Positions 1 to 20,000 of a DNA stretch of 20,000 nucleotides are shown piece after piece. Origin of the DNA: an uncultured virus (IMG/VR IMGVR_UViG_3300009605_000022). Its lineage: Duplodnaviria; Heunggongvirae; Uroviricota; Caudoviricetes. How positions within the stretch are numbered: position 1 is the stretch's first letter; each line of letters opens with the position of its first letter. A model generated the notes under the pieces. It worked only from the letters and a program-made list of their open reading frames with translations. It had not been told where the DNA came from and did not search any database. The stretch is from IMG/VR virus record IMGVR_UViG_3300009605_000022; one strand, given 5' to 3'. A program made the position numbers and the translations under genes.

Positions 1-50
1 TGACCGGCTCTCCAAGGAAGAGCTGTCTTAGTTTGAGTTGCTTTGCTCAT
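1..50 (-). CDS. 5' end of a leaderless ORF (MSKATQTKTALPWRAG...), runs off the window
   Basis: ATG at 50-48 lies 3 nt after the TTGGTAT element of the type-B promoter, the same geometry as the ORFs starting at 794 and 1590. Confidence 0.7.
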   Translation of the reverse strand, partial: MSKATQTKTALPWRAG

Positions 51-53
51 AAT

Positions 54-103
54 ATACCAAGGACACCACCCTATATAAAGCTTTTTTCACCCGAGTGGAA
101 AAA
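54..103 (-). promoter_or_regulatory. Type-B archaeal promoter (TTTATATA box 79-72, TTGGTAT initiator-like element) plus upstream palindrome TTTTTTCAC-CCGA-GTGGAAAAA
   Basis: Repeated at 798-846 and 1594-1641; the TATA box lies 22-29 nt upstream of the ATG with an A-rich BRE-like flank. Confidence 0.8.
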
Positions 104-154
104 TAAAAAATGCAACTTCACCTGAGGCTCCGCGTGTTTAAGAAACACCTCAGG
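101..154 (-). terminator. Hairpin CCTGAGG/CCTCAGG with inner GTGTTT/AAACAC, followed by a U-rich tract on the minus strand
   Basis: Inverted repeats 121-127/148-154 and 134-139/143-148; TTTTTTATTTTT downstream on the minus strand. Confidence 0.6.
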
Positions 155-540
155 GAGCGGTTGCCCGAGAGCACATTAATCTGCATAGGTAGTGCTACAC
201 GTGGGGTGTGACCTGTCGCCAGTCAAAAGGATATCCTTCACGAAAGGCGAACACAAGCATGAACAGGTGTGATACTCATAGCTTAACGGATTGATTCTAT
301 AACAGGGATAAAGTGATTCAAAGGTGATACATAATGTTAGCTACACGTCGTTCTAAAACTTAGATGCGCATCGACCGGAAAGGGATTGGGTCAGCACTGT
401 TCAGCTAGTATTTGTTATGTGAATGTCTCGTTGTTGCGTATGGTTCGATTTTGTTTCCTTGTCAGGTCACGTGTTACAGCTGATAACTGTAAGTGAGCGG
501 GTGCAATACTATTTTGCTATTTTCATCTCCCCGCTCTGTA
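110..540 (-). ncRNA. Candidate large structured ncRNA 1 (~430 nt)
   Basis: Sits directly behind the type-A promoter (541-569) with no credible ORF. Stems: 495-501/530-536, 474-479/487-492, long-range 208-215/463-470, 216-220/246-250, 227-238, 363-372, 170-174/192-196, and a terminal hairpin plus U tract. Confidence 0.65.
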
Positions 541-569
541 TTACCAATAGAGTGTCTCTATATAAGCTT
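541..569 (-). promoter_or_regulatory. Type-A archaeal promoter repeat (AAGCTTATATAG-AGACACTCTA-TTGGTAA on the minus strand)
   Basis: 29-bp repeat, 27/29 identical to the copies at 1420-1448 and 2170-2198; contains the dyad ATAGAG-TGT-CTCTAT. Confidence 0.8.
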
Positions 570-794
570 TTCTCCCATGGACTTTATCTCACTGACATAC
601 ACGTCACCGAGTTCAAAAGAACCATAAGTAAAATCTGATTTGACAGCGCAGAACCAACGGGCGTGTGGGTTCTTCGCTTCATTCTCAGCGTTTTGGTATT
701 TCTTTAATACTCTCCATTCAAAGCCACGTGGGCCAGTCCAGACCTCGTAAGGGTCATCTGTTTTGCGGGTTTTACCGCACATGTTTTTAGTCAT
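558..794 (-). CDS. Leaderless 78-aa hypothetical viral protein
   Basis: ATG 3 nt after TTGGTAT of a type-B promoter; protein-like composition (WRVLKKYQ...ARWFCAVKS...ELGDVY); stop lies inside the next TATA box. Confidence 0.85.
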   Translation of the reverse strand: MTKNMCGKTRKTDDPYEVWTGPRGFEWRVLKKYQNAENEAKNPHARWFCAVKSDFTYGSFELGDVYVSEIKSMGEKLI

Positions 795-797
795 ACA

Positions 798-846
798 ATA
801 CCAAGGGTGGGGGTCTATATAAAGCTTTTTTCACACGAGTGGAAAA
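798..846 (-). promoter_or_regulatory. Type-B promoter plus palindrome TTTTTTCAC-ACGA-GTGGAAAA
   Basis: ATACCAA 798-804, TATATAAA 816-823, palindrome 826-846. Confidence 0.8.
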
Positions 847-884
847 CCTCGAGGCGGGGGCAAAGGCCATAGCCCCCTAGAGGT
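846..884 (-). terminator. GC-rich hairpin ending the 1402-896 operon
   Basis: ACCTC/GAGGT (846-850/880-884) and GGGGGC/GCCCCC (856-861/872-877), followed by TTTT on the minus strand. Confidence 0.55.
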
Positions 885-895
885 GTCAAAACTGC

Positions 896-976
896 TTACG
901 AAATACGTCTGGCCTTTTTGATAATCTTATTCGTTCTCTTCTTCCAACCTCGTTCTAAGTAGGTATCGTAGCTCAT
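896..976 (-). CDS. 26-aa basic microprotein MSYDTYLERGWKKRTNKIIKKARRIS
   Basis: Hand-translated; ATGA overlap with the upstream ORF stop. Confidence 0.55.
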   Translation of the reverse strand: MSYDTYLERGWKKRTNKIIKKARRIS

Positions 977-1089
977 AAGCCACACCCACAGCAAGGTGCA
1001 TCTTCACACCCGCAGAGGACAATATAGTCTCCTGCTTCACTTATACCAGAGATGACCATGTCATCTAAAATATCTAAGATGCTCTTCAT
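973..1089 (-). CDS. 38-aa Cys-rich microprotein ending CGCEDAPCCGCGL
   Basis: Hand-translated; ATGA overlaps at both ends; metal-binding-like Cys cluster. Confidence 0.7.
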   Translation of the reverse strand: MKSILDILDDMVISGISEAGDYIVLCGCEDAPCCGCGL

Positions 1090-1223
1090 TTGGTCAACCC
1101 CAGCTTGATTGCTTTTAGTTGGTCCAATACTCCGGAATCAATTTTATTCTTTTGTATGGTTCTGCGTGCTACTCTCCTGAAGCGGAAAGCGTTTCTGGTG
1201 TCTTGTATTGTTTGTTCTAACAT
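1086..1223 (-). CDS. 45-aa basic microprotein MLEQTIQDTRNAFRFRRVARR...
   Basis: Hand-translated; AGGAG Shine-Dalgarno upstream; ATGA coupling downstream. Confidence 0.65.
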   Translation of the reverse strand: MLEQTIQDTRNAFRFRRVARRTIQKNKIDSGVLDQLKAIKLGLTK

Positions 1224-1237
1224 GTTTATCTCCTATC

Positions 1238-1402
1238 TTACCATACTCCACAGGCTATATAAAACCTTTCATCATCGAACCGTGGGTTCTCTGCTTCATA
1301 CTTTTTTGCGAAGTCTTTTGCTACCTGCATCTTTACCGATGCCGGCCATCCTGTTGTCCTTATTAGGTCTGCTGTTGCTTGAAAATCTTTTCTTGTGTTC
1401 AT
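1238..1402 (-). CDS. 54-aa viral protein MNTRKDF...NPRFDDERFYIACGVW
   Basis: Start moved to 1402 (GAGGA SD, downstream of a type-A promoter); the TRKDF...NPRFD..RF..AC pattern resembles small phage early proteins (from memory, not searched). Confidence 0.8.
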   Translation of the reverse strand: MNTRKDFQATADLIRTTGWPASVKMQVAKDFAKKYEAENPRFDDERFYIACGVW

Positions 1403-1419
1403 ATTTATTTCCTCGTATA

Positions 1420-1448
1420 TTACCAATAGGGTGTCCCTATATAAGCTT
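1420..1448 (-). promoter_or_regulatory. Type-A promoter repeat
   Basis: TTACCAATAGGGTGTCCCTATATAAGCTT, identical to 2170-2198. Confidence 0.8.
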
Positions 1449-1590
1449 ACCGGTGCCTCCACTTTCTCATTCTCACCAGCATACTTTGAGTTTGTAAACT
1501 CCTGCTGTAGAACTCTTCGAATTCCATTTTACCACCATATGATTTATAGTGATGCCAATTTGCTAACCTTTGTGTTTCGTATTTAGTCAT
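1447..1590 (-). CDS. Leaderless 47-aa protein MTKYETQRLANWHHYKSYGG...
   Basis: ATG 3 nt after TTGGTAT; the stop TAA overlaps the AAGCTT of the next promoter. Confidence 0.7.
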   Translation of the reverse strand: MTKYETQRLANWHHYKSYGGKMEFEEFYSRSLQTQSMLVRMRKWRHR

Positions 1591-1593
1591 AGT

Positions 1594-1641
1594 ATACCAA
1601 CGGGTGTGTCTATATAAAGCTTTTTTCACACGTGTGGAAAA
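1594..1641 (-). promoter_or_regulatory. Type-B promoter plus palindrome TTTTTTCAC-ACGT-GTGGAAAA
   Basis: ATACCAA 1594-1600, TATATAAA 1611-1618, palindrome 1621-1641. Confidence 0.8.
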
Positions 1642-1644
1642 GCT

Positions 1645-1980
1645 GGCGCCCCGCCGACTTAAAAGAAGCCGGTTATGGGGGTAACCTGCGTTTAGCTGTC
1701 CTACCATTATAGGCTGGCTTACTAAACTGAAGATGCGTCGCTACGTTTAACGCTCGGGCGGACTTATGCCTAAGGCCCTTCGCCATCACTTGTCAGGCGT
1801 CTCCTATTGTCCACGATGCTGGACAGTTTATTAGACTGACTCATACACTTGCCCTTTCCGTTGGGGGAACCTACTCCTTCGGCCTCCTTCTTACAGTGTT
1901 CGTGGACTCACGGAACATAATCTCTTTTGGGCTGAGTGTAATACTATTTTACTATTTTCATCGTCTCAGCCCGTTAGAGG
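1645..1980 (-). ncRNA. Candidate structured ncRNA 2 (~335 nt)
   Basis: GC-richer with no credible ORF. Stems: 1929-1936/1965-1972 (domain shared with ncRNA 1), 1897-1917, 1808-1825, 1757-1760/1781-1784, 1723-1729/1824-1830, and terminal hairpin 1649-1680 with a G-U pair on the minus strand. Confidence 0.6.
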
Positions 1981-1988
1981 TGCGTGGT

Positions 1989-2057
1989 TTATAATTTTCT
2001 TGTTGCGTATGATATTCCTACTAACCATGTTAGTAAGCTACTTTGGTATGTGTTCAT
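1989..2057 (-). CDS. 22-aa micro-ORF MNTYQSSLLTWLVGISYATRKL
   Basis: AGGAGG SD; TAATG overlap with the upstream stop. Confidence 0.45.
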   Translation of the reverse strand: MNTYQSSLLTWLVGISYATRKL

Positions 2058-2155
2058 TAGTCGCCTCCTTTTCTTATTAAGTATTGATAGTGAAATGGTC
2101 TACCGTTTTTCTTAAAGTCTTTTGCTAGCTTTGCCCAGTGTTGTCTTCGTGTCAT
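2057..2155 (-). CDS. 32-aa basic microprotein MTRRQHWAKLAKDFKKNGRPFHYQYLIRKGGD
   Basis: Start moved to 2155 (GAGGA SD, downstream of a type-A promoter). Confidence 0.65.
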   Translation of the reverse strand: MTRRQHWAKLAKDFKKNGRPFHYQYLIRKGGD

Positions 2156-2169
2156 GTTTTTCCTCTGTA

Positions 2170-2198
2170 TTACCAATAGGGTGTCCCTATATAAGCTT
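2170..2198 (-). promoter_or_regulatory. Type-A promoter repeat
   Basis: Identical to 1420-1448. Confidence 0.8.
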
Positions 2199-2289
2199 AT
2201 CCCCTGAACTCCGTCCAGCACTCCCAACATAGTTGAGAGTTGAAAAGTGTATAAGTCATGCATGCTGATTTATTACATTCTTCGCACAT
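2197..2289 (-). CDS. 30-aa CxxC...CxxC zinc-finger-like microprotein MCEECNKSACMTYTLFNSQLCWECWTEFRG
   Basis: GGTGAGG SD; two CxxC pairs; stop overlaps the promoter repeat. Confidence 0.65.
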   Translation of the reverse strand: MCEECNKSACMTYTLFNSQLCWECWTEFRG

Positions 2290-2290
2290 T

Positions 2291-2407
2291 TTATTCCTCA
2301 CCGGTCCAAAATGTTGCGAACATTTCAGTATCGCAATCTTCACATAGTCCACCGAATAATTCGATATCTTCCAAGCCACAGTCTTCACATTGTTGTTTTA
2401 ATTCCAT
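2291..2407 (-). CDS. 38-aa acidic zinc-finger-like microprotein MELKQQCEDCGLEDIELFGGLCEDCDTEMFATFWTGEE
   Basis: Hand-translated; GAGGA SD; CEDC occurs twice; downstream of the promoter variant at 2425-2453. Confidence 0.7.
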   Translation of the reverse strand: MELKQQCEDCGLEDIELFGGLCEDCDTEMFATFWTGEE

Positions 2408-2424
2408 TTGTATTCCTCGCTAAT

Positions 2425-2453
2425 ATACCAACGCGAGGTAACATATATTACTT
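2425..2453 (-). promoter_or_regulatory. Degenerate type-B-like promoter
   Basis: TTGGTAT element plus TAATATAT box at equivalent spacing. Confidence 0.55.
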
Positions 2454-2539
2454 TGGGTGGGGCCTATCGTCGTGAACCTCAAAATCCTAAACAGGGGTAT
2501 ATAAGGGGGCCAATCCCGCTCGCGTTTTTTGGTGAAATT

Positions 2540-2560
2540 TTTTTTCACACGTGTGGAAAA
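2540..2560. repeat. Fourth copy of the palindrome TTTTTTCACACGTGTGGAAAA
   Basis: Identical to 1621-1641. Confidence 0.9.
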
Positions 2561-2610
2561 ATTGCTGGGGGTTTATATACCCCCTTTTCCGGCGAATGGA
2601 CTATATATAC

Positions 2611-2751
2611 TTATAGCTGTTCGTGAATCTGGTCAACGATGTCATGAAGTATGTCTAACATATAACCACGAGTTAATACGTCATTATGACCATACTTATT
2701 TTTTTGCATCGAACCGATGTCAACTTTATCTAAATCAATTTCGAATTTCAT
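2611..2751 (-). CDS. 46-aa protein MKFEIDLDKVDIGSMQKNKYGHNDVLTRGYMLDILHDIVDQIHEQL
   Basis: Hand-translated; GAGGT SD; ATGA overlap with the upstream ORF. Confidence 0.7.
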   Translation of the reverse strand: MKFEIDLDKVDIGSMQKNKYGHNDVLTRGYMLDILHDIVDQIHEQL

Positions 2752-2975
2752 TTTTCTACCTCCTTTATTTTTCCTGCCATTTCTTGAACCTCTTTTAGAA
2801 CATACTTTGCAAAGTTATTCCAATCGGTTTTATTTCTTGAATCTTTTGCTAATGAATCCCATGCCATTATAGTGGACCTGAGATTATTGTAAGCGTTAGC
2901 TTCGTTTCTGATTTGCTCATTGCTTAATGCTGGGGCTTCTTCTGCCCTCTTGATGTAGGTGATTAACATGCTCAT
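2748..2975 (-). CDS. 75-aa helical hypothetical protein
   Basis: ORF track; coupled to both neighbours; GGGGGTG SD. Confidence 0.75.
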   Translation of the reverse strand: MSMLITYIKRAEEAPALSNEQIRNEANAYNNLRSTIMAWDSLAKDSRNKTDWNNFAKYVLKEVQEMAGKIKEVEK

Positions 2976-2977
2976 GT

Positions 2978-3166
2978 TTACACCCCCAATTCATAGAAGC
3001 AGTCAAGGCATACCTTGTAGCCTCTTGCCCTGTGGGCTTGAACTGCATCGTTGCAACACTCGCACATATCTTGTGCGTTGTTTAATTCTTTCATGCCTTG
3101 CTCGATGGCCATATCTAATTGGTGCATCATGCTGTCTAACTCGGTTATTATTTCGTTGTTGTTCAT
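2978..3166 (-). CDS. 62-aa coiled-coil plus CxxC...CxxC zinc-ribbon protein
   Basis: Start moved to 3166 (GAGGA SD after GTAATACAGAG, the same initiator context as type-A promoters); CECC...CLDC. Confidence 0.75.
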   Translation of the reverse strand: MNNNEIITELDSMMHQLDMAIEQGMKELNNAQDMCECCNDAVQAHRARGYKVCLDCFYELGV

Positions 3167-3179
3167 ATTTGTTTCCTCT

Positions 3180-3212
3180 GTATTACTCATAGCGACCTAC
3201 TTAATAAAGGTT
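3180..3212 (-). promoter_or_regulatory. Promoter variant (AACCTTTATTAA...GAGTAATAC)
   Basis: TATA-like box at the same distance from GTAATACAGAG as in the type-A copies. Confidence 0.5.
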
Positions 3213-3266
3213 TCGTTGGGAGGGGTATACCCCCCCTACCCTAGGCCCCTACTGGGGGTGCCCCCC

Positions 3267-3581
3267 TTAGGCCCTCCTGTGCCCAGTGTTTGCCATACCT
3301 TGACATTCTGGCTCAGAGCCATATTGTCGGTAGTGTTCAGCAACCAAAGAAGCTTCATGTTCTAAAGCTTCCCATGGGTTTGAAAATTCTTTCAATACTA
3401 TCATGGATACATCATGACCTTTTTTAGGCCTGTGTTTACTAAGTCTTGACTGGGGGTCTTGAGTTAGTCCGTAATAGATTGCATCCTTATCTATTCCTTG
3501 TGTATAATCGACGTCAAAGAAGTGATAACTTGTCTTTTCTGTCTGTCTGGCTAGTTTGTATATATAGTAGTTGTTGTTCAT
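3267..3581 (-). CDS. GIY-YIG family nuclease-like protein
   Basis: YYIYKL...IYYGLTQDPQSRLSKH...EALEHE matches the GIY...YIG.T...R..H...E pattern. Confidence 0.7.
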   Translation of the reverse strand: MNNNYYIYKLARQTEKTSYHFFDVDYTQGIDKDAIYYGLTQDPQSRLSKHRPKKGHDVSMIVLKEFSNPWEALEHEASLVAEHYRQYGSEPECQGMANTGHRRA

Positions 3582-3595
3582 ATTACTTACCTCTT

Positions 3596-3628
3596 ACCTA
3601 TACAGGGGCAACACCCTATATAAGCTTA
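3596..3628 (-). promoter_or_regulatory. Type-A-like promoter for the GIY-YIG gene
   Basis: AAGCTTATATAGGG on the minus strand; GAGGT SD downstream. Confidence 0.65.
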
Positions 3629-3670
3629 AGTGTTTTAAAGGAGGGGGTATATAAGTAAATCCAAGCAAAT

Positions 3671-3790
3671 GGAAAAAAACGCAAAAAAAATGACAAAAAA
3701 ATGCAAAAAATCGCGCAAAAAATGCGCTAAAAAAACGCCAAAAACGCGCCAATGTCGCGCGCTATAAATTTATTAAAAATCGCGCTAATG
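3671..3790. repeat. Phased A-tracts separated by short CG-containing linkers
   Basis: A5-8 tracts start at 3673, 3683, 3695, 3705, 3717, 3729 and 3740. Confidence 0.8.
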
Positions 3791-4599: not shown

Positions 4600-5675
4600 T
4601 GGAGCTTAATATGATTGAGATAAAACATTTAATGAAAGACTCTTTAGTGCCTTTGGCTTTAGAGAGAGGAGGAACTGTAAAGCCTCTTATAATACCAGCA
4701 GCCGAGACCGGTGGGTTAGGATTATGCAACCCGTCGATATACCACGTACCTAAGACATCTAAGTACTTGATTAATGTGCGTAATGTATCTTATTACTTAC
4801 ACCACTGTGAAGGAGACCAGAAGTACCAAACACCATGGGGTCCTTTGAATTATGTAAGACCAGATAACGATGCATACCTAAGAACTAAGAATTTTATATG
4901 CGATTATAATTTAGGACAGGGTAAGATAACCAAGCATAAACTATTAGATACATCTAAATTTAAGAAAGAACCTGAGTGGGACTTTGTAGGATTAGAGGAT
5001 GGACGTATAGTGGAGTGGGAAGGTAAAACATATTTAACCGGCGTTAGGCGCTACGCGCCTGATGGCAAAGGAAGGATGGTGCTGTCTGAAATTGAGATTA
5101 CTAAAAAAGGAGTCAAGGAAGTTGGTCGATATGTGATGGACTCTCCTAATGGTCCTGAAGAATACTGTGAGAAGAACTGGATGCCTATCTTAGATATGCC
5201 ATTCCATTATGTTCATACAGCTAACCCACTTAAGATTGTCAAAGTAGATATAAATGAAAAGTGGAAACATAACCCAATAAAGTATAGGTGTCCTGTTAAC
5301 GTAGTACACGAAGGTAAAGAAGAGATACCTCTACAGTTAGACCCTCGTGGCAGTTCACAACTTGTACCATGGAAGGATGGTTATCTATGTGTAACACATG
5401 AATGTGACTACTGGCATAATGAGAAAAATGACAGAGACGCACATTACTATCACAGGTTTATATACTGGGACAAAGAATGGAACCTAAAAGGATATTCACA
5501 ACCGTACAAGTTTATGGATGGTAGAATAGAATTCTGTTGTGGTATGGCAGGTCACCCTGATGCACAGTGTGATGACATGCTTATAACATATGGCTTCCAA
5601 GATAATTCTGCTTATGTACTACACATAAAAGAAGACCATATACTAGAGTTATTGGAGCATTCAAATAAGGAATGA
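4599..5675 (+). CDS. GH130/GH43-like five-bladed beta-propeller glycosidase or phosphorylase
   Basis: NPSI, GLEDGR, EKNWMP, RGSS, IEFCCG, ITYGFQD motifs. Confidence 0.75.
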   Translation: MELNMIEIKHLMKDSLVPLALERGGTVKPLIIPAAETGGLGLCNPSIYHVPKTSKYLINVRNVSYYLHHCEGDQKYQTPWGPLNYVRPDNDAYLRTKNFICDYNLGQGKITKHKLLDTSKFKKEPEWDFVGLEDGRIVEWEGKTYLTGVRRYAPDGKGRMVLSEIEITKKGVKEVGRYVMDSPNGPEEYCEKNWMPILDMPFHYVHTANPLKIVKVDINEKWKHNPIKYRCPVNVVHEGKEEIPLQLDPRGSSQLVPWKDGYLCVTHECDYWHNEKNDRDAHYYHRFIYWDKEWNLKGYSQPYKFMDGRIEFCCGMAGHPDAQCDDMLITYGFQDNSAYVLHIKEDHILELLEHSNKE

Positions 5676-7297
5676 ACAATTACTGGAAAACCACAGCGTG
5701 GCCTACGCTAGAGATAACAACCTCAATTCCTAAAGCAGGATGCGTAGTTGATTGTGTCTTTTGTCCACAACGAGTCTTACAGAAAGTATGGGATGCTGAG
5801 AAGTTCACTACTAACGCAGCTAGAACTATGAAGCTCGAGGACTTCAAGATGGTAATAGATAAATTACCTAAAGAAGTGAGGATTACTTTCTCAGGGTTCA
5901 CCGAACCTTGGTTAAATAAAAATACTACTGACATGTTGTTATATGCACATGAGCAGGGACATAGGGTATCCGTATTTACTACAGCAGTAGGTATGCAACT
6001 CAAAGACGTTGAAAGAATAAAAGACATTCCATTCTGTGGTGGACCTAATGGTGGGTTTACTTTACACTTACCTGATACAGAAAGGTTAGCCAAACATCCA
6101 GTAAATAAGAAGTACATTAAAGTAGTTCAAGCACTTAAAGACGCCAATATCAATAATTTTCAAACGATGTCTATGGGCATGGTTCATGAAGAGGTGGTAG
6201 ATATTTATCCAGACGAAGAAGTCAATAAATATGAAATGTGGCACAGAGCAGGTAACCTATTAGGTGAAGCTCAACTTAAACCAGAAGTAAAAGAAGTATG
6301 GGATAGATTTAAATCAATAATGCATGAGGATGAAATGACATGTGGTTGTGTAGAAGATTTATATCATAATATCTTATTACCTAATGGTGAAGTATCTTTA
6401 TGTTGTATGGATTATAATTTAGAAGAGATACTTGGTAATTTATATACTGAAGAGTATGACGACATACTACCACCACCAAATACTACATATGATATGTGTA
6501 GCAGGTGTGAGAATGGTGTTCCACCTATGAAACTAAGTGGATGGGAAGAAGAGATAACAATAAACCCACAAGGAACATCACCAGAGAGTAATGCACCTAT
6601 TCTCGTCAAAGAAGAAACAATAGATAGATTAGATTATAACAATTACTTTGTTCCAGAAGCTATGGTACAATATTTAGATAATAATAAAGTTCCAGAGCAT
6701 GAAATAATAAACTGGGCTAAGAATAACTTCTGTCATAACGAAAAGACGTTTGTAGACATAGGAGCACATGTTGGTACATATACATGGACACTAGCACCGT
6801 TCTTTAGTAGTACAGTTAGTTTCGAACCTACTAAGTCAACATATAATTATTTATGTGGAAACGTAATGCTTAAGAACCTGTCAAAGAAAGTTACAACTCA
6901 TAACGTAGCTTTAGGTGCAGAAGAAACTACCATGATGTTTTACGAAAGAAGTAAAGATGGTGGTACTAATGGATTGAACTTAGATTACAACAATGGTAAA
7001 TGGTTAGGTAATGACCAAGACCACTACGAAGTAAAAGTAAATAGATTAGATGATTATAAACTAATGAATGTAGGATTTATAAAAATAGATGTAGAAGGCT
7101 ATGAGCTTGCAGTATTAAAAGGAGCAACCACAACATTACAGAACAATGGTTACCCTCCAATACTATTCGAAAGCTGGCCTGCTAACAATCCAGAGAATAC
7201 TTTATTGAAAGATAATTTATTTAATTACTTATTCGCATTAGGATACAAAATAGGAAGTACACCACACCCCGAGATATTTATAGCAAGGAAAGATTAA
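5672..7297 (+). CDS. Radical SAM/SPASM-like domain fused to an FkbM-family methyltransferase
   Basis: CVVDCVFC, SGFTEP, VSLCCMDY..LGN..CSRC; then FVDIGAHVG, FEP, IKIDVEGYELAVLKGA. Confidence 0.85.
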   Translation: MNNYWKTTAWPTLEITTSIPKAGCVVDCVFCPQRVLQKVWDAEKFTTNAARTMKLEDFKMVIDKLPKEVRITFSGFTEPWLNKNTTDMLLYAHEQGHRVSVFTTAVGMQLKDVERIKDIPFCGGPNGGFTLHLPDTERLAKHPVNKKYIKVVQALKDANINNFQTMSMGMVHEEVVDIYPDEEVNKYEMWHRAGNLLGEAQLKPEVKEVWDRFKSIMHEDEMTCGCVEDLYHNILLPNGEVSLCCMDYNLEEILGNLYTEEYDDILPPPNTTYDMCSRCENGVPPMKLSGWEEEITINPQGTSPESNAPILVKEETIDRLDYNNYFVPEAMVQYLDNNKVPEHEIINWAKNNFCHNEKTFVDIGAHVGTYTWTLAPFFSSTVSFEPTKSTYNYLCGNVMLKNLSKKVTTHNVALGAEETTMMFYERSKDGGTNGLNLDYNNGKWLGNDQDHYEVKVNRLDDYKLMNVGFIKIDVEGYELAVLKGATTTLQNNGYPPILFESWPANNPENTLLKDNLFNYLFALGYKIGSTPHPEIFIARKD

Positions 7298-7299
7298 CA

Positions 7300-7959
7300 A
7301 TGAGACAAATAGAAATAAAATTAGAAGAATACCTAGCAGACCCCACAGAACCAATGACCAGTTTCAACATGGGACTTGAGTATGAACTCATAGGGCAGTA
7401 TGCCTCTGCAATGGGATACTATCTGAAAGCAGCTGAATTAACAGATGATGATAAGTTAGCATACGAATGTTTACTTAGAAAAGCAATGTGTTATAAAGAG
7501 TTACCAGATAGATGGGCACATGTAAGAATTAATTGTTTACACGCAGTTAGTTTGATGCCAGAAAGACCTGAAGCATATCATTTGCTGTCTGTAGCTTACG
7601 AGAACACAGGCAATTGGATAGAATCATATACATGGGCTAAAGTAGGACAAAGATTAAATGGAATAGCTAAGAATGATATATTAAGAACAGATGTACAATA
7701 TGCTGGACATTATGTATTAAGATTTCAACAAGCTGTTGCAGAATGGCATCTAGGTAGATTCCAAGAATCAATAGACCAATTCAAAGCTTTACTTGAAGAA
7801 GAACCTTTAGACTTAGCTTATCAAGGTCATTGTAAATGGAATGTAGACCACCTAGAAGGTAGAGATGCAGATGCACTTGCTGGTATTAAGAAAGGTAAGA
7901 GCACTACTGATAAAGATGAGATAATTAAAAAGATAATGGAGAAACAACAAAAGAAGTAA
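7300..7959 (+). CDS. TPR-repeat protein
   Basis: Helical repeats: GQYASAMGYYLKAAEL, PERPEAYHLLS, LGRFQESIDQF. Confidence 0.75.
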   Translation: MRQIEIKLEEYLADPTEPMTSFNMGLEYELIGQYASAMGYYLKAAELTDDDKLAYECLLRKAMCYKELPDRWAHVRINCLHAVSLMPERPEAYHLLSVAYENTGNWIESYTWAKVGQRLNGIAKNDILRTDVQYAGHYVLRFQQAVAEWHLGRFQESIDQFKALLEEEPLDLAYQGHCKWNVDHLEGRDADALAGIKKGKSTTDKDEIIKKIMEKQQKK

Positions 7960-8711: not shown

Positions 8712-9685
8712 TGACAGAAACTAAATGGACAGCGAGTCACATGAGGCTCAGCCCAAGTAAGATTAATACTTACATGAAATGCCCCCGAGAGTTCTACTAT
8801 AACTATATAGCTAAACTCCCACAAAAGAAAACAATACATTTGTTCAGAGGAACATTAGTACACAAAGTCTTAGAAGAACTTTTTAAGCAACAATTTAAAA
8901 CTTTACCACAATGGGAGAAAGGAGAACCTAAGGTATGGGTACAAGAACAATTCGAAAAAGGATGGGAAGAAAAGATAGCTAAACACAAATGGTTATGGGA
9001 CGTACACACTGATTTAGAAATGGATGCTATGTATAAAGAGACAGAAGCACTATTACAAAACTTTGTAGACTCTGTAGATAAGAAACTAACAGAAATGGTT
9101 GAATGGAAGATATTCCGTAATAAACAACAAGCATGGAATGCAGTAGCACCTAAGTATGCTGAGAAGTGGGTTAAGTCTCACGAGTATGCAATCGTAGGAG
9201 TTATAGATGTTGTATGTAATGATTTCGATGGTGGCACTACACTACTTGATTATAAGACATCAAAAAGATATGGACCATACCTACCAGAAGAATATTACAG
9301 GCAGTTAATTATTTATGCCTTTTTATATACGTTAGAGATGGGAGAGATGCCTAACTTTGTAGGTGTTAACTATCTTCGTTTTGATGATACATTCTTTGTT
9401 AAGGTAGGACAAAAGGAACTTGATGAAGCTAAAGACTTAATTAAGATGGTACACGATTGTATCAAAGAACGTCAAGAGTATGAAGACAGATATGAACAGA
9501 AACCACAGAACTTATGTAAGTGGTGTTCTTTCCATAAATCTCAAGGTGGACCCTGTGATGCTGAAGTTCCAAAATGGGAACCAAAGTTCAAAAAACGTAA
9601 AAAAGAAAATTATGCAGATATATCAAAAGATTCTAAATTGAACATAGAATTAGAAAATCAGGACCAGTTTCCAGACTACGACTAA
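8711..9685 (+). CDS. PD-(D/E)XK nuclease, Cas4/RecB(AddB)-like, with four Fe-S cysteines
   Basis: SPS...CPR, GTLVH, GVID...DYKT, QLIIY, CKWC...C. Confidence 0.85.
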   Translation: MTETKWTASHMRLSPSKINTYMKCPREFYYNYIAKLPQKKTIHLFRGTLVHKVLEELFKQQFKTLPQWEKGEPKVWVQEQFEKGWEEKIAKHKWLWDVHTDLEMDAMYKETEALLQNFVDSVDKKLTEMVEWKIFRNKQQAWNAVAPKYAEKWVKSHEYAIVGVIDVVCNDFDGGTTLLDYKTSKRYGPYLPEEYYRQLIIYAFLYTLEMGEMPNFVGVNYLRFDDTFFVKVGQKELDEAKDLIKMVHDCIKERQEYEDRYEQKPQNLCKWCSFHKSQGGPCDAEVPKWEPKFKKRKKENYADISKDSKLNIELENQDQFPDYD

Positions 9686-19502: not shown

Positions 19503-20000
19503 ATGTCAAAAAATTATTCTAAAGTTTTAAGAAGTACAAACTCTTTTGGAGGTACAAAAAATTACATAAGGAGCGAAGTCGCTGGCGGTACTGGCTCACA
19601 AGGTTCTCAAGGTATTCAAGGTTCTCAAGGTTCTCAAGGTACGACAGGTACAACAGGAACACAAGGTAATACAGGTACACAAGGTAATACAGGAACACAA
19701 GGAACTACAGGAACACAAGGAACTACAGGAACTCAAGGTACAACTGGTACTCAAGGAACAGCAGGTTCTGGTGGTGGTTCAGGTACTCAAGGTACACAAG
19801 GTACTCAAGGTACACAAGGTACACAAGGAACTACAGGAACACAAGGAACTACAGGGACACAGGGAACTACAGGAACACAAGGAACTACTGGAGCTCAAGG
19901 TACAAATGGAACACAGGGTACTACGGGAACTCAAGGAACTCAAGGAACACAGGGAACTGAGGGACTATTCGGTGGTAACAGTATAGAATTTAATTATAGC
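19503..20000 (+). CDS. Collagen-like (Gly-X-Y) fibre protein, partial
   Basis: Open frame from ATG 19503 to the window end (not in the ORF track): MSKNYSKVLR...GSQGSQGIQ...(GTQ/GTT/GNT)n; GGAG SD. Confidence 0.88.
   Translation, partial: MSKNYSKVLRSTNSFGGTKNYIRSEVAGGTGSQGSQGIQGSQGSQGTTGTTGTQGNTGTQGNTGTQGTTGTQGTTGTQGTTGTQGTAGSGGGSGTQGTQGTQGTQGTQGTTGTQGTTGTQGTTGTQGTTGAQGTNGTQGTTGTQGTQGTQGTEGLFGGNSIEFNYS

Follow-up and report, generated by a model that had tools for sequence, protein, structure and literature searches.

A folded non-coding RNA of uncultured marine phages with a palindromic internal loop that suggests self-pairing

The minus strand of positions 95-540 of the window (the whole stretch of phage DNA that was analysed, 20,000 nt) is a gene for a real folded phage RNA, which is non-coding. 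The RNA belongs to no known family and resembles the ornate phage RNAs GOLLD and ROOL in kind. It is about 300-445 nt long and modular, consisting of an optional 5' hairpin (P1), a small hairpin (P2), a constant core of about 265 nt and an optional 3' domain. An 8-nt palindrome in an internal loop of the core is suggestive of symmetric pairing between two copies of the RNA. To the fuller reading, in which the product of 95-540 would be a trans-acting, self-pairing RNA with the role of a scaffold or decoy in the early phase of infection, we give about an even chance; the strongest competing view is that of an RNA which works as a monomer or bound to protein, and roles in cis are less likely.

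To our knowledge, few natural RNAs act as homo-oligomers. The family described here adds a much smaller homo-oligomer candidate with a clean, testable signature of symmetric pairing, for which natural variants without single modules (P1, 3' domain, palindrome arm) are available. Uncultured marine phages of a widespread group carry it, and the RNA was found in ocean RNA libraries, which makes it a tractable model for what ornate phage RNAs do. In addition, an RNA family and a neighbouring second RNA candidate are brought to light which current RNA databases have missed.

Phage context

Positions 1-3700 of the window hold small minus-strand genes punctuated by a promoter-like element (repeat families D2-D4). 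From 4114 onward the genes lie on the plus strand and include a radical-SAM/methyltransferase fusion, an exonuclease, the large terminase, the portal and the major head protein; the identity of this terminase to those of cultured phages stays below 24%. G001 represents the same phage from window position 8975 onward, and the RNA locus is outside its overlap. No Pfam or PHROG family was obtained for most of the small early genes, including those for the 78-aa protein upstream and the 79-aa and 110-aa proteins downstream of the RNA, and weak matches below threshold pointed to a zinc-ribbon (2291-2407) and a GIY-YIG protein (3267-3581). The rest of the phage encodes PolB, a class II RNR, RecU, DenV, CobT/CbbQ-like proteins and Hsp20. 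Neither an RNA polymerase nor a clear RNA-binding partner was found in the scanned parts of the phage genome. The one sign that this phage may have an enzyme acting on RNA is a 229-aa protein in G001 (L107:16963-17652), which has no PHROG family and matches the palm of poly(A)-polymerase-like nucleotidyltransferases weakly and below the cutoff (E 3e-4).

Several further features of the genome were recorded. A second promoter-like type, UUUUCCACnCGnGUGAAAAAAGCUUUAUAUAG-~10 nt-TTGGTAnnnn-ATG with a fixed distance, is present on the minus strand at 51-105, 799-849 and 1591-1644. A start 7 nt past TTGG would yield leaderless mRNAs; if TATATT is read as the usual -10 motif, the start would fall inside the ORF. 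An array at 3663-3762, in which A tracts follow one another at 10-13 nt and which holds seven copies of the repeat family D1, is located between the divergent early (minus) and late (plus) blocks and has the appearance of intrinsically bent DNA ahead of the first early promoter. The fusion at 5672-7297 (541 aa) combines radical SAM/SPASM with an FkbM-type methyltransferase and is followed by a TPR protein (7300-7959). The gene at 19503-20000 continues in G001:C1:11408-13761 with about ten tandem diverged copies of a unit of about 330 nt (68-80% identical), and its product is probably a repeat-domain structural protein.

Homologue samples

Homologues were collected by an exact search for a 21-nt core motif, which gave 6 IMG/VR loci and 49 metagenome-contig loci. 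Together with the window, these 56 stretches comprised 42 distinct ones, 36 of them at full length. The metagenome match L070, in which the 21-nt motif has unrelated surroundings, was excluded prior to alignment, leaving 35 homologues in alignment A4 and 33 distinct cores in alignment A5. A second sample, independent of the motif, was drawn via the upstream 78-aa protein and comprised 17 loci. The RNA was located directly downstream of this protein in 11 of them (nhmmer E ≤ 5e-25), and the remaining 6, which carry the most divergent relatives of the 78-aa protein, are without the RNA at this place. Six of the 11 neighbour-derived contigs were new and, with L009 added, the set grew to 39 distinct cores (alignment A8), all of which are from uncultured marine phage contigs.

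The RNA is conserved block-wise across contigs which are 73-89% identical. A profile of the core matched once in the window and had no match in G001 (four loci searched: L001, L106-L108). Positions 1-1500 of the window gave no blastn match in 50,697 phage records. The 27-nt loop motif of P1 had no match among 185,579 prokaryote species genomes; a 19-nt core motif gave 13 matches there, each of only 19-27 nt, which were regarded as chance. Neither motif led to a host or a prophage.

Transcription unit and coding potential

The following features define the unit:

95-540, minus strand: structured RNA gene with conserved fold and covariation and no conserved ORF
538-575, minus strand: promoter-like element AAGCTTATATAG-~10 nt-CTATTGGTAATAC, belonging to the repeat families D2-D4 of the window
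99-164, minus strand: 3' domain with covariation, formed by the hairpin GCAAC...GUUGC (164-112) and a U tract (about 110-99)

A preliminary description, made from the sequence of the window, had proposed a stand-alone structured transcript with its own promoter and terminator in a segment free of ORFs. What it had seen in the sequence (long-range helix, promoter, 3' end, stems and ORF gap) was confirmed as a whole, and its view of a stand-alone structured non-coding transcription unit is borne out by covariation, the lack of a conserved ORF, the promoter-like element upstream of 35/35 homologues and the terminator domain in 30/35. A second part of its interpretation, which concerned an alternative pairing of GAGCGG at 155-160, found no support (see below).

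The promoter-like element at 575-538 combines AAGCTTATATAG and CTATTGGTAATAC, recurs in the window and overlaps the stop codon of the upstream 78-aa gene (558-794). From its position, we infer that the RNA starts with the A about 7 nt past TTGG, near 537-535. At the other end, a stable hairpin (164-112) is followed by the U tract AUUUUUUAUUUUU, which is the arrangement of an intrinsic terminator, and the 3' domain is likely to be one. Of the 30 homologues with this domain, 28 possess a T-rich tail, which in L068 sits behind an extra hairpin, and the stem pairs (A4 columns 468-473 with 498-503) are double-changed in 2-13 sequences. A simple terminator scan had missed the hairpin, as loop and stem are beyond the limits of the scan. 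In the five homologues without the 3' domain, the RNA stops right past the closing helix of the core.

The longest sense ORF within 95-540 encodes 26 aa, in agreement with the ORF gap that had been claimed. A search of the homologues for a conserved peptide frame, as had been proposed, gave none: across 35 homologues no ORF is kept in position or length. Short ORFs are present in every copy, a sense ORF of at least 20 aa is absent in 2 of the 35, and the lengths of indels are not multiples of three.

The RNA might instead serve the 79-aa gene as a long leader with a regulatory role or as a 5' UTR that is processed. This gene starts at window position 50 and is found downstream of the RNA in most homologues; the absence of the terminator domain in five homologues would suit such a role as well. 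Between the RNA and the 79-aa gene, however, there is another promoter-like element (69-105), whose distance to the ATG is fixed, the terminator-like hairpin and its U tract come ahead of the gene, and the region upstream of the RNA differs among phage groups, so that this explanation is improbable.

Fold and covariation

For 43 hand-picked pairs on A8 (39 distinct cores), 98.5% of cells were paired. Double-sided changes numbered 17 compared to a shuffle mean of 6.0, and none of 500 shuffles reached 17; most homologues share the exact 21-nt motif and form a close, mosaic branch, and this kinship inflates shuffle-based controls. When the partner columns were slid by 1-3 positions, pairing dropped to 29-49%. 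RNAalifold on A4 predicted 61 pairs and found 18 of these to be double-changed in a compensating manner. A fuller fold of 70 pairs on the 33 cores of A5, which was derived from the same alignment as used for its counts, had 96.8% of cells paired versus 91.4% in shuffles, and its 18 double-sided changes were reached by 0/500 shuffles. At least eight stems had been described; six helices tested on A8, with P1, the terminator stem and further inner helices in addition, agree with this number.

Folding was also compared with that of shuffled sequences, as suggested in the preliminary description. The 446 nt of the minus strand gave a z-score of -1.64 (4/100 shuffles equally good) and the core gave -1.65 (7/200 shuffles equally good), whereas the plus strand gave +0.53. 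This signal is weak and, on thermodynamics of a single sequence, borderline; hence, the case is based on the comparison of homologues. With 17 double-changed pairs and clean controls, a reading of the region as something other than a functional RNA, either an intergenic remnant or a stretch that encodes small peptides, is scarcely credible. A z-score of only about -1.6 and short ORFs in every copy are what it would predict; against it, the ORFs are unconserved in place and length, two of 35 copies have none of at least 20 aa in sense direction, and conservation is block-wise in contigs of 73-89% identity.

The fold contains conserved G-U pairs, e.g., at A8 columns 140/173, 282/298 and 284/297. 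Since these would be C-A on the other strand, the fold works for the minus strand only. Both observations, the conserved G-U pairs and the strand dependence of folding, indicate RNA rather than duplex DNA and bear on a possible role in cis on DNA or replication, in which the region would be an origin-proximal primer transcript or a structured DNA site. ColE1 RNA II is such a transcript that primes replication. The early region, the strong promoter-like element and a distance of about 3 kb from the phased A-tract array at 3663-3762 would fit this role, but a terminator-like hairpin ends the unit in 30/35 homologues and neither iterons nor a nearby initiator gene were seen among the scanned neighbours. 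We consider a role in replication just as improbable as that of a leader.

Architecture of the RNA

The modules and helices of the RNA are:

495-536, minus strand: P1, 5' hairpin GAGCGGG/CCCGCUC with a 27-nt loop (527-501) and inner stem GYAA/UURC
473-492, minus strand: P2, small hairpin with two exclusive registers, UUACAG/CUGUAA or GUUAU/GUAAC
463-470, minus strand: 5' strand of the closing helix, GUGACCUG, pairing with 208-215
208-215, minus strand: 3' strand of the closing helix, CAGGUCAC, pairing with 463-470
277-442, minus strand: long irregular arm with H2, H3, H4, less certain inner helices and, near the tip, H10
442-436 with 282-277, minus strand: H2, 98.3% paired on A8
432-429 with 288-285, minus strand: H3, three covarying pairs (A4 fold)
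418-413 with 304-299, minus strand: H4, 94.9% paired on A8
377-372 with 350-344, minus strand: H10, 100% paired on A8, three pairs double-changed
364-371, minus strand: perfect palindrome of 8 nt, AUGCGCAU, in the internal loop flanked by H10 and a mini-hairpin (363-353)
216-250, minus strand: H6 arm, outer stem UCGCC/GGCGA around the hairpin UCGUGAAGG-AUAU-CCUUUUGA, with covariation

The core is closed by GUGACCUG/CAGGUCAC and encloses the long irregular arm and the shorter H6 arm. This long-range helix, which had been pointed out before (208-215 with 463-470), was recovered in the single-sequence fold, in the alignment folds and by covariation. In 39 sequences, 100% of its cells are paired and three of its eight pairs are double-changed. 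It is invariant in the motif-derived sample and varies only in the wider one, where three compensating spellings were found, namely GUGACCUG/CAGGUCAC, GUGACGUG/CAUGUCAC (L119) and GUGACGAA/UUCGUCAC (L009). The H6 arm has 99.2% of cells paired and 9/13 pairs double-changed (A8); its tip is a UUCG tetraloop hairpin in 5 of the 11 copies which were not chosen by the 21-nt motif. Within the long arm, register and spelling of H3 vary by group (AACG/CGUU, GACGA/UCGUC and AUACGA/UCGUAU, as read from the alignments), and the inner helices H7-H9 are taken only from the alignment fold. Many unpaired segments of the RNA are highly conserved in the alignments.

On the 18 distinct rows of alignment A6, P1 had 92.6% of cells paired versus 72.2% in shuffles, with double-sided changes in 7/8 outer and 1/4 inner pairs. 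P1 is absent in 5/35 homologues and has its tip replaced in others, so that three forms of the tip exist: the 27-nt loop, a short loop or a UUUCAGGGGCCGAAUCCCGAC module, the last of which we take to resemble the T-loop of tRNA. The swappable tips might be handles for a shared partner or for the stability of the RNA. In P2, CAG/CUG is replaced by UGG/CCA in 10 sequences (A5 fold, pairs 6-22 and 7-21), and its GUUA/UAAC register had 96.8% of cells paired on A8.

GAGCGG at 155-160 had been put forward as the sign of an alternative partner for the 5' stem strand near the 3' end. The motif is present, but the alternative pairing found no support: CCGCUC (160-155) is kept regardless of P1, in 29/30 RNAs with the 3' domain, including five without P1 and five with a mismatching P1 strand. 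The pairing is possible in 20/30 RNAs with the 3' domain, and only L078 changes matchingly.

Palindromic internal loop

The palindrome at 364-371 is perfect in 32/33 distinct cores of A5, where it occurs in five spellings: AUGCGCAU (12 cores), ACGGCCGU (12), AUGGCCAU (6), UCCUAGGA (1) and CCAGCUGG (1). The exception is L068, whose core is devoid of the whole palindrome arm. All 11 neighbour-derived copies are palindromic as well (AUGCGCAU in seven, AUGGCCAU in three and UCAGCUGA in one). The last of these is a sixth spelling and is found in L119 and L009. The central four letters alternate between GCGC, GGCC, CUAG and AGCU, and no non-palindromic intermediate was seen among the cores and copies which have the arm. 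In a positional control with 160 eight-column windows of A5, the sole other palindrome was the hairpin tip of the search motif. The 12-nt sequence AAGGAUAUCCUU was considered as a second pairing site and rejected, for copies that were not selected by the motif have UUCG tetraloop hairpins there.

The palindrome is thus a self-complementary stretch that is unpaired in the monomer fold and kept through changes of spelling. A palindrome of 8 nt is unable to fold back on itself, and neighbouring letters of a single strand cannot form a pair. Energies of the 8-mer self-duplexes range from -10.5 to -14.3 kcal/mol. In a cofold of two cores, the minimum was a trivial, uninformative domain swap in which the palindrome is unused.

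A published precedent is provided by OLE and GOLLD: Kretsch et al. (10.1101/2024.12.08.627333) take switching between GGCC, GAUC and AGCU in OLE L9.3 and GOLLD L21a as evidence for intermolecular kissing loops, which they resolved by cryo-EM in both RNAs. The loop described here likewise is self-complementary with a centre that switches between palindromes. It differs from OLE L9.3 and GOLLD L21a in being an 8-nt palindrome in an internal loop beside a mini-hairpin instead of a terminal loop, and the contact, which in those RNAs was seen by cryo-EM, is here predicted from sequence. From the palindrome being kept across spellings and from this precedent, we infer symmetric RNA-RNA pairing.

The structured, trans-acting RNA could also work as a monomer or in a protein complex, with the palindrome serving, for example, as the site of a dimeric RNA-binding protein or of an RNase that requires a duplex. 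Fold and covariation fit a monomer equally well, the many conserved unpaired segments are expected of protein or tertiary contacts, and L068 lives without the palindrome arm. On the other hand, a protein that reads the sequence at the palindrome would not tolerate six spellings, all of which are perfectly self-complementary; moreover, the letters of the palindrome cannot pair in-strand and the published precedent is one of intermolecular pairing. We hold a monomeric or protein-bound RNA to be less likely than a self-pairing one, though it is a rival to be taken seriously. If the RNA does pair with itself, the palindromes of two copies would form a symmetric loop-loop contact, giving a dimer or a larger assembly, and this assembly would, in early infection, scaffold a protein or nucleic-acid partner or act as a decoy for it.

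Comparison with known RNA families

The whole window was searched against Rfam at gathering thresholds, and no match was obtained. At E-values up to 10, positions 1-2100 and 90-580 gave only sub-threshold snoRNA-type chance matches. Rfam 15 covers GOLLD, ROOL, OLE, raiA, 6S, Y RNA, RNase P and tmRNA as well as group I/II introns, pRNA and the known self-cleaving ribozymes. ARAGORN found no tRNA or tmRNA gene in the window. A box C/D (kink-turn) assignment was rejected, as the P1-type hairpin of region B (see below) scored 24.1 bits versus a cutoff of 45 and, in the P1 loop, the 3' strand (...UUGCAC-stem) has no GA or CUGA adjoining the stem.

The likeness to GOLLD and ROOL proposed in the preliminary description is apt as an analogy, given that the RNA is phage-borne and ornate and probably pairs with itself; without an Rfam match, it is a member of neither family. 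Like these, it is hundreds of nucleotides long, with a covarying fold of many helices and a variable periphery. Unlike these, it has a core of about 265 nt in place of more than 500-800 nt and no tRNA genes nearby, and its predicted assembly would use a single candidate bridge. According to Kretsch et al. (10.1101/2024.12.08.627333), the solved structures of GOLLD and ROOL self-assemble via kissing loops and other bridges.

Two further systems were compared. RNA-RNA association via loop complementarity is also known from the HIV-1 dimerisation initiation site and from the pRNA of phi29, a phage RNA transcribed from an early promoter at the genome end, which uses two different complementary loops and forms a ring on the portal. 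The RNA described here showed no similarity to them in the Rfam scans, and its phage is unrelated to phi29 (terminase less than 24% identical to any cultured phage's).

A full-text literature search gave no description of this phage RNA family. In an IMG/VR comparative screen, Fremin, Bhatt and Kyrpides (2023, PMC10690425) predicted 10,006 candidate structured viral RNAs. Four motif strings of the RNA were not found in the searchable part of its supplementary files, and the family could be among the candidates of the screen.

Presence in RNA libraries

Part of 95-600 is present in 17 runs which are on record as RNA. Contigs from four RNA-library runs (four studies), compared over 1-2400, cover 166-489. 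One of them, of 266 nt, equals 207-472 with no difference, and variants at 367/368 convert AUGCGCAU to AUGGCCAU. Elsewhere in 1-2400, the cover comprises only 1159-1406 (X1) and 1988-2018 (X2); absence of cover carries no weight as evidence, and the runs had been chosen for containing the RNA stretch. Such contigs carry no information on strand, ends or level, and DNA may be contained in the libraries; the cover therefore stands for presence in RNA libraries, short of proof of transcription. Contig ends at 471-473 in three runs were considered as a sign of RNA processing, which was rejected because this may be the border of a variable module where assemblies break.

Second RNA candidate and shared hairpin

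A second structured RNA candidate without an ORF, region B, was noticed on the minus strand at 1634-1976, downstream of ORFs of 32 aa and 22 aa in the same transcription unit. A fold on six homologues predicted 69 pairs, 19 with compensating changes. Neither a conserved palindrome nor an Rfam match was found in region B, and the only part in common with the RNA at 95-540 is the hairpin with the 27-nt loop (1936-1962 in region B).

This loop, GAUGAAAAUAGYAAAAUAGUAUURCAC, is present in the window at 501-527 and 1936-1962 and in 20 IMG/VR loci (L009-L028). It is always located atop a stem of 6-8 bp with varying sequence, and ACYUUAC often follows 3' of it. In other phages its sites are intergenic, and in L011, L013 and L024 it is just ahead of an ORF. 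The loop could offer a handle to proteins, stabilise the 5' end or mark a site of processing.

Taken together with the palindrome, the shared hairpin prompts a tentative proposal, which we hold with less confidence than that of a self-pairing scaffold or decoy: the RNA may represent a compact class of ornate RNAs that form an RNA-only dimer or assembly via a palindromic internal loop and are built from interchangeable modules, with the 27-nt-loop hairpin being common to region B and to intergenic sites of other marine phages. If so, a common RNA "parts kit", perhaps with a shared protein partner, would exist in this uncultured marine phage lineage.

In the phage of L121, with 70% identity in the upstream protein, this promoter-like element stands ahead of a different sequence (1434-1600). 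This sequence also opens with a long hairpin, GGAGCGGG ... CCCCGCUCC, and is possibly another RNA in the same slot.
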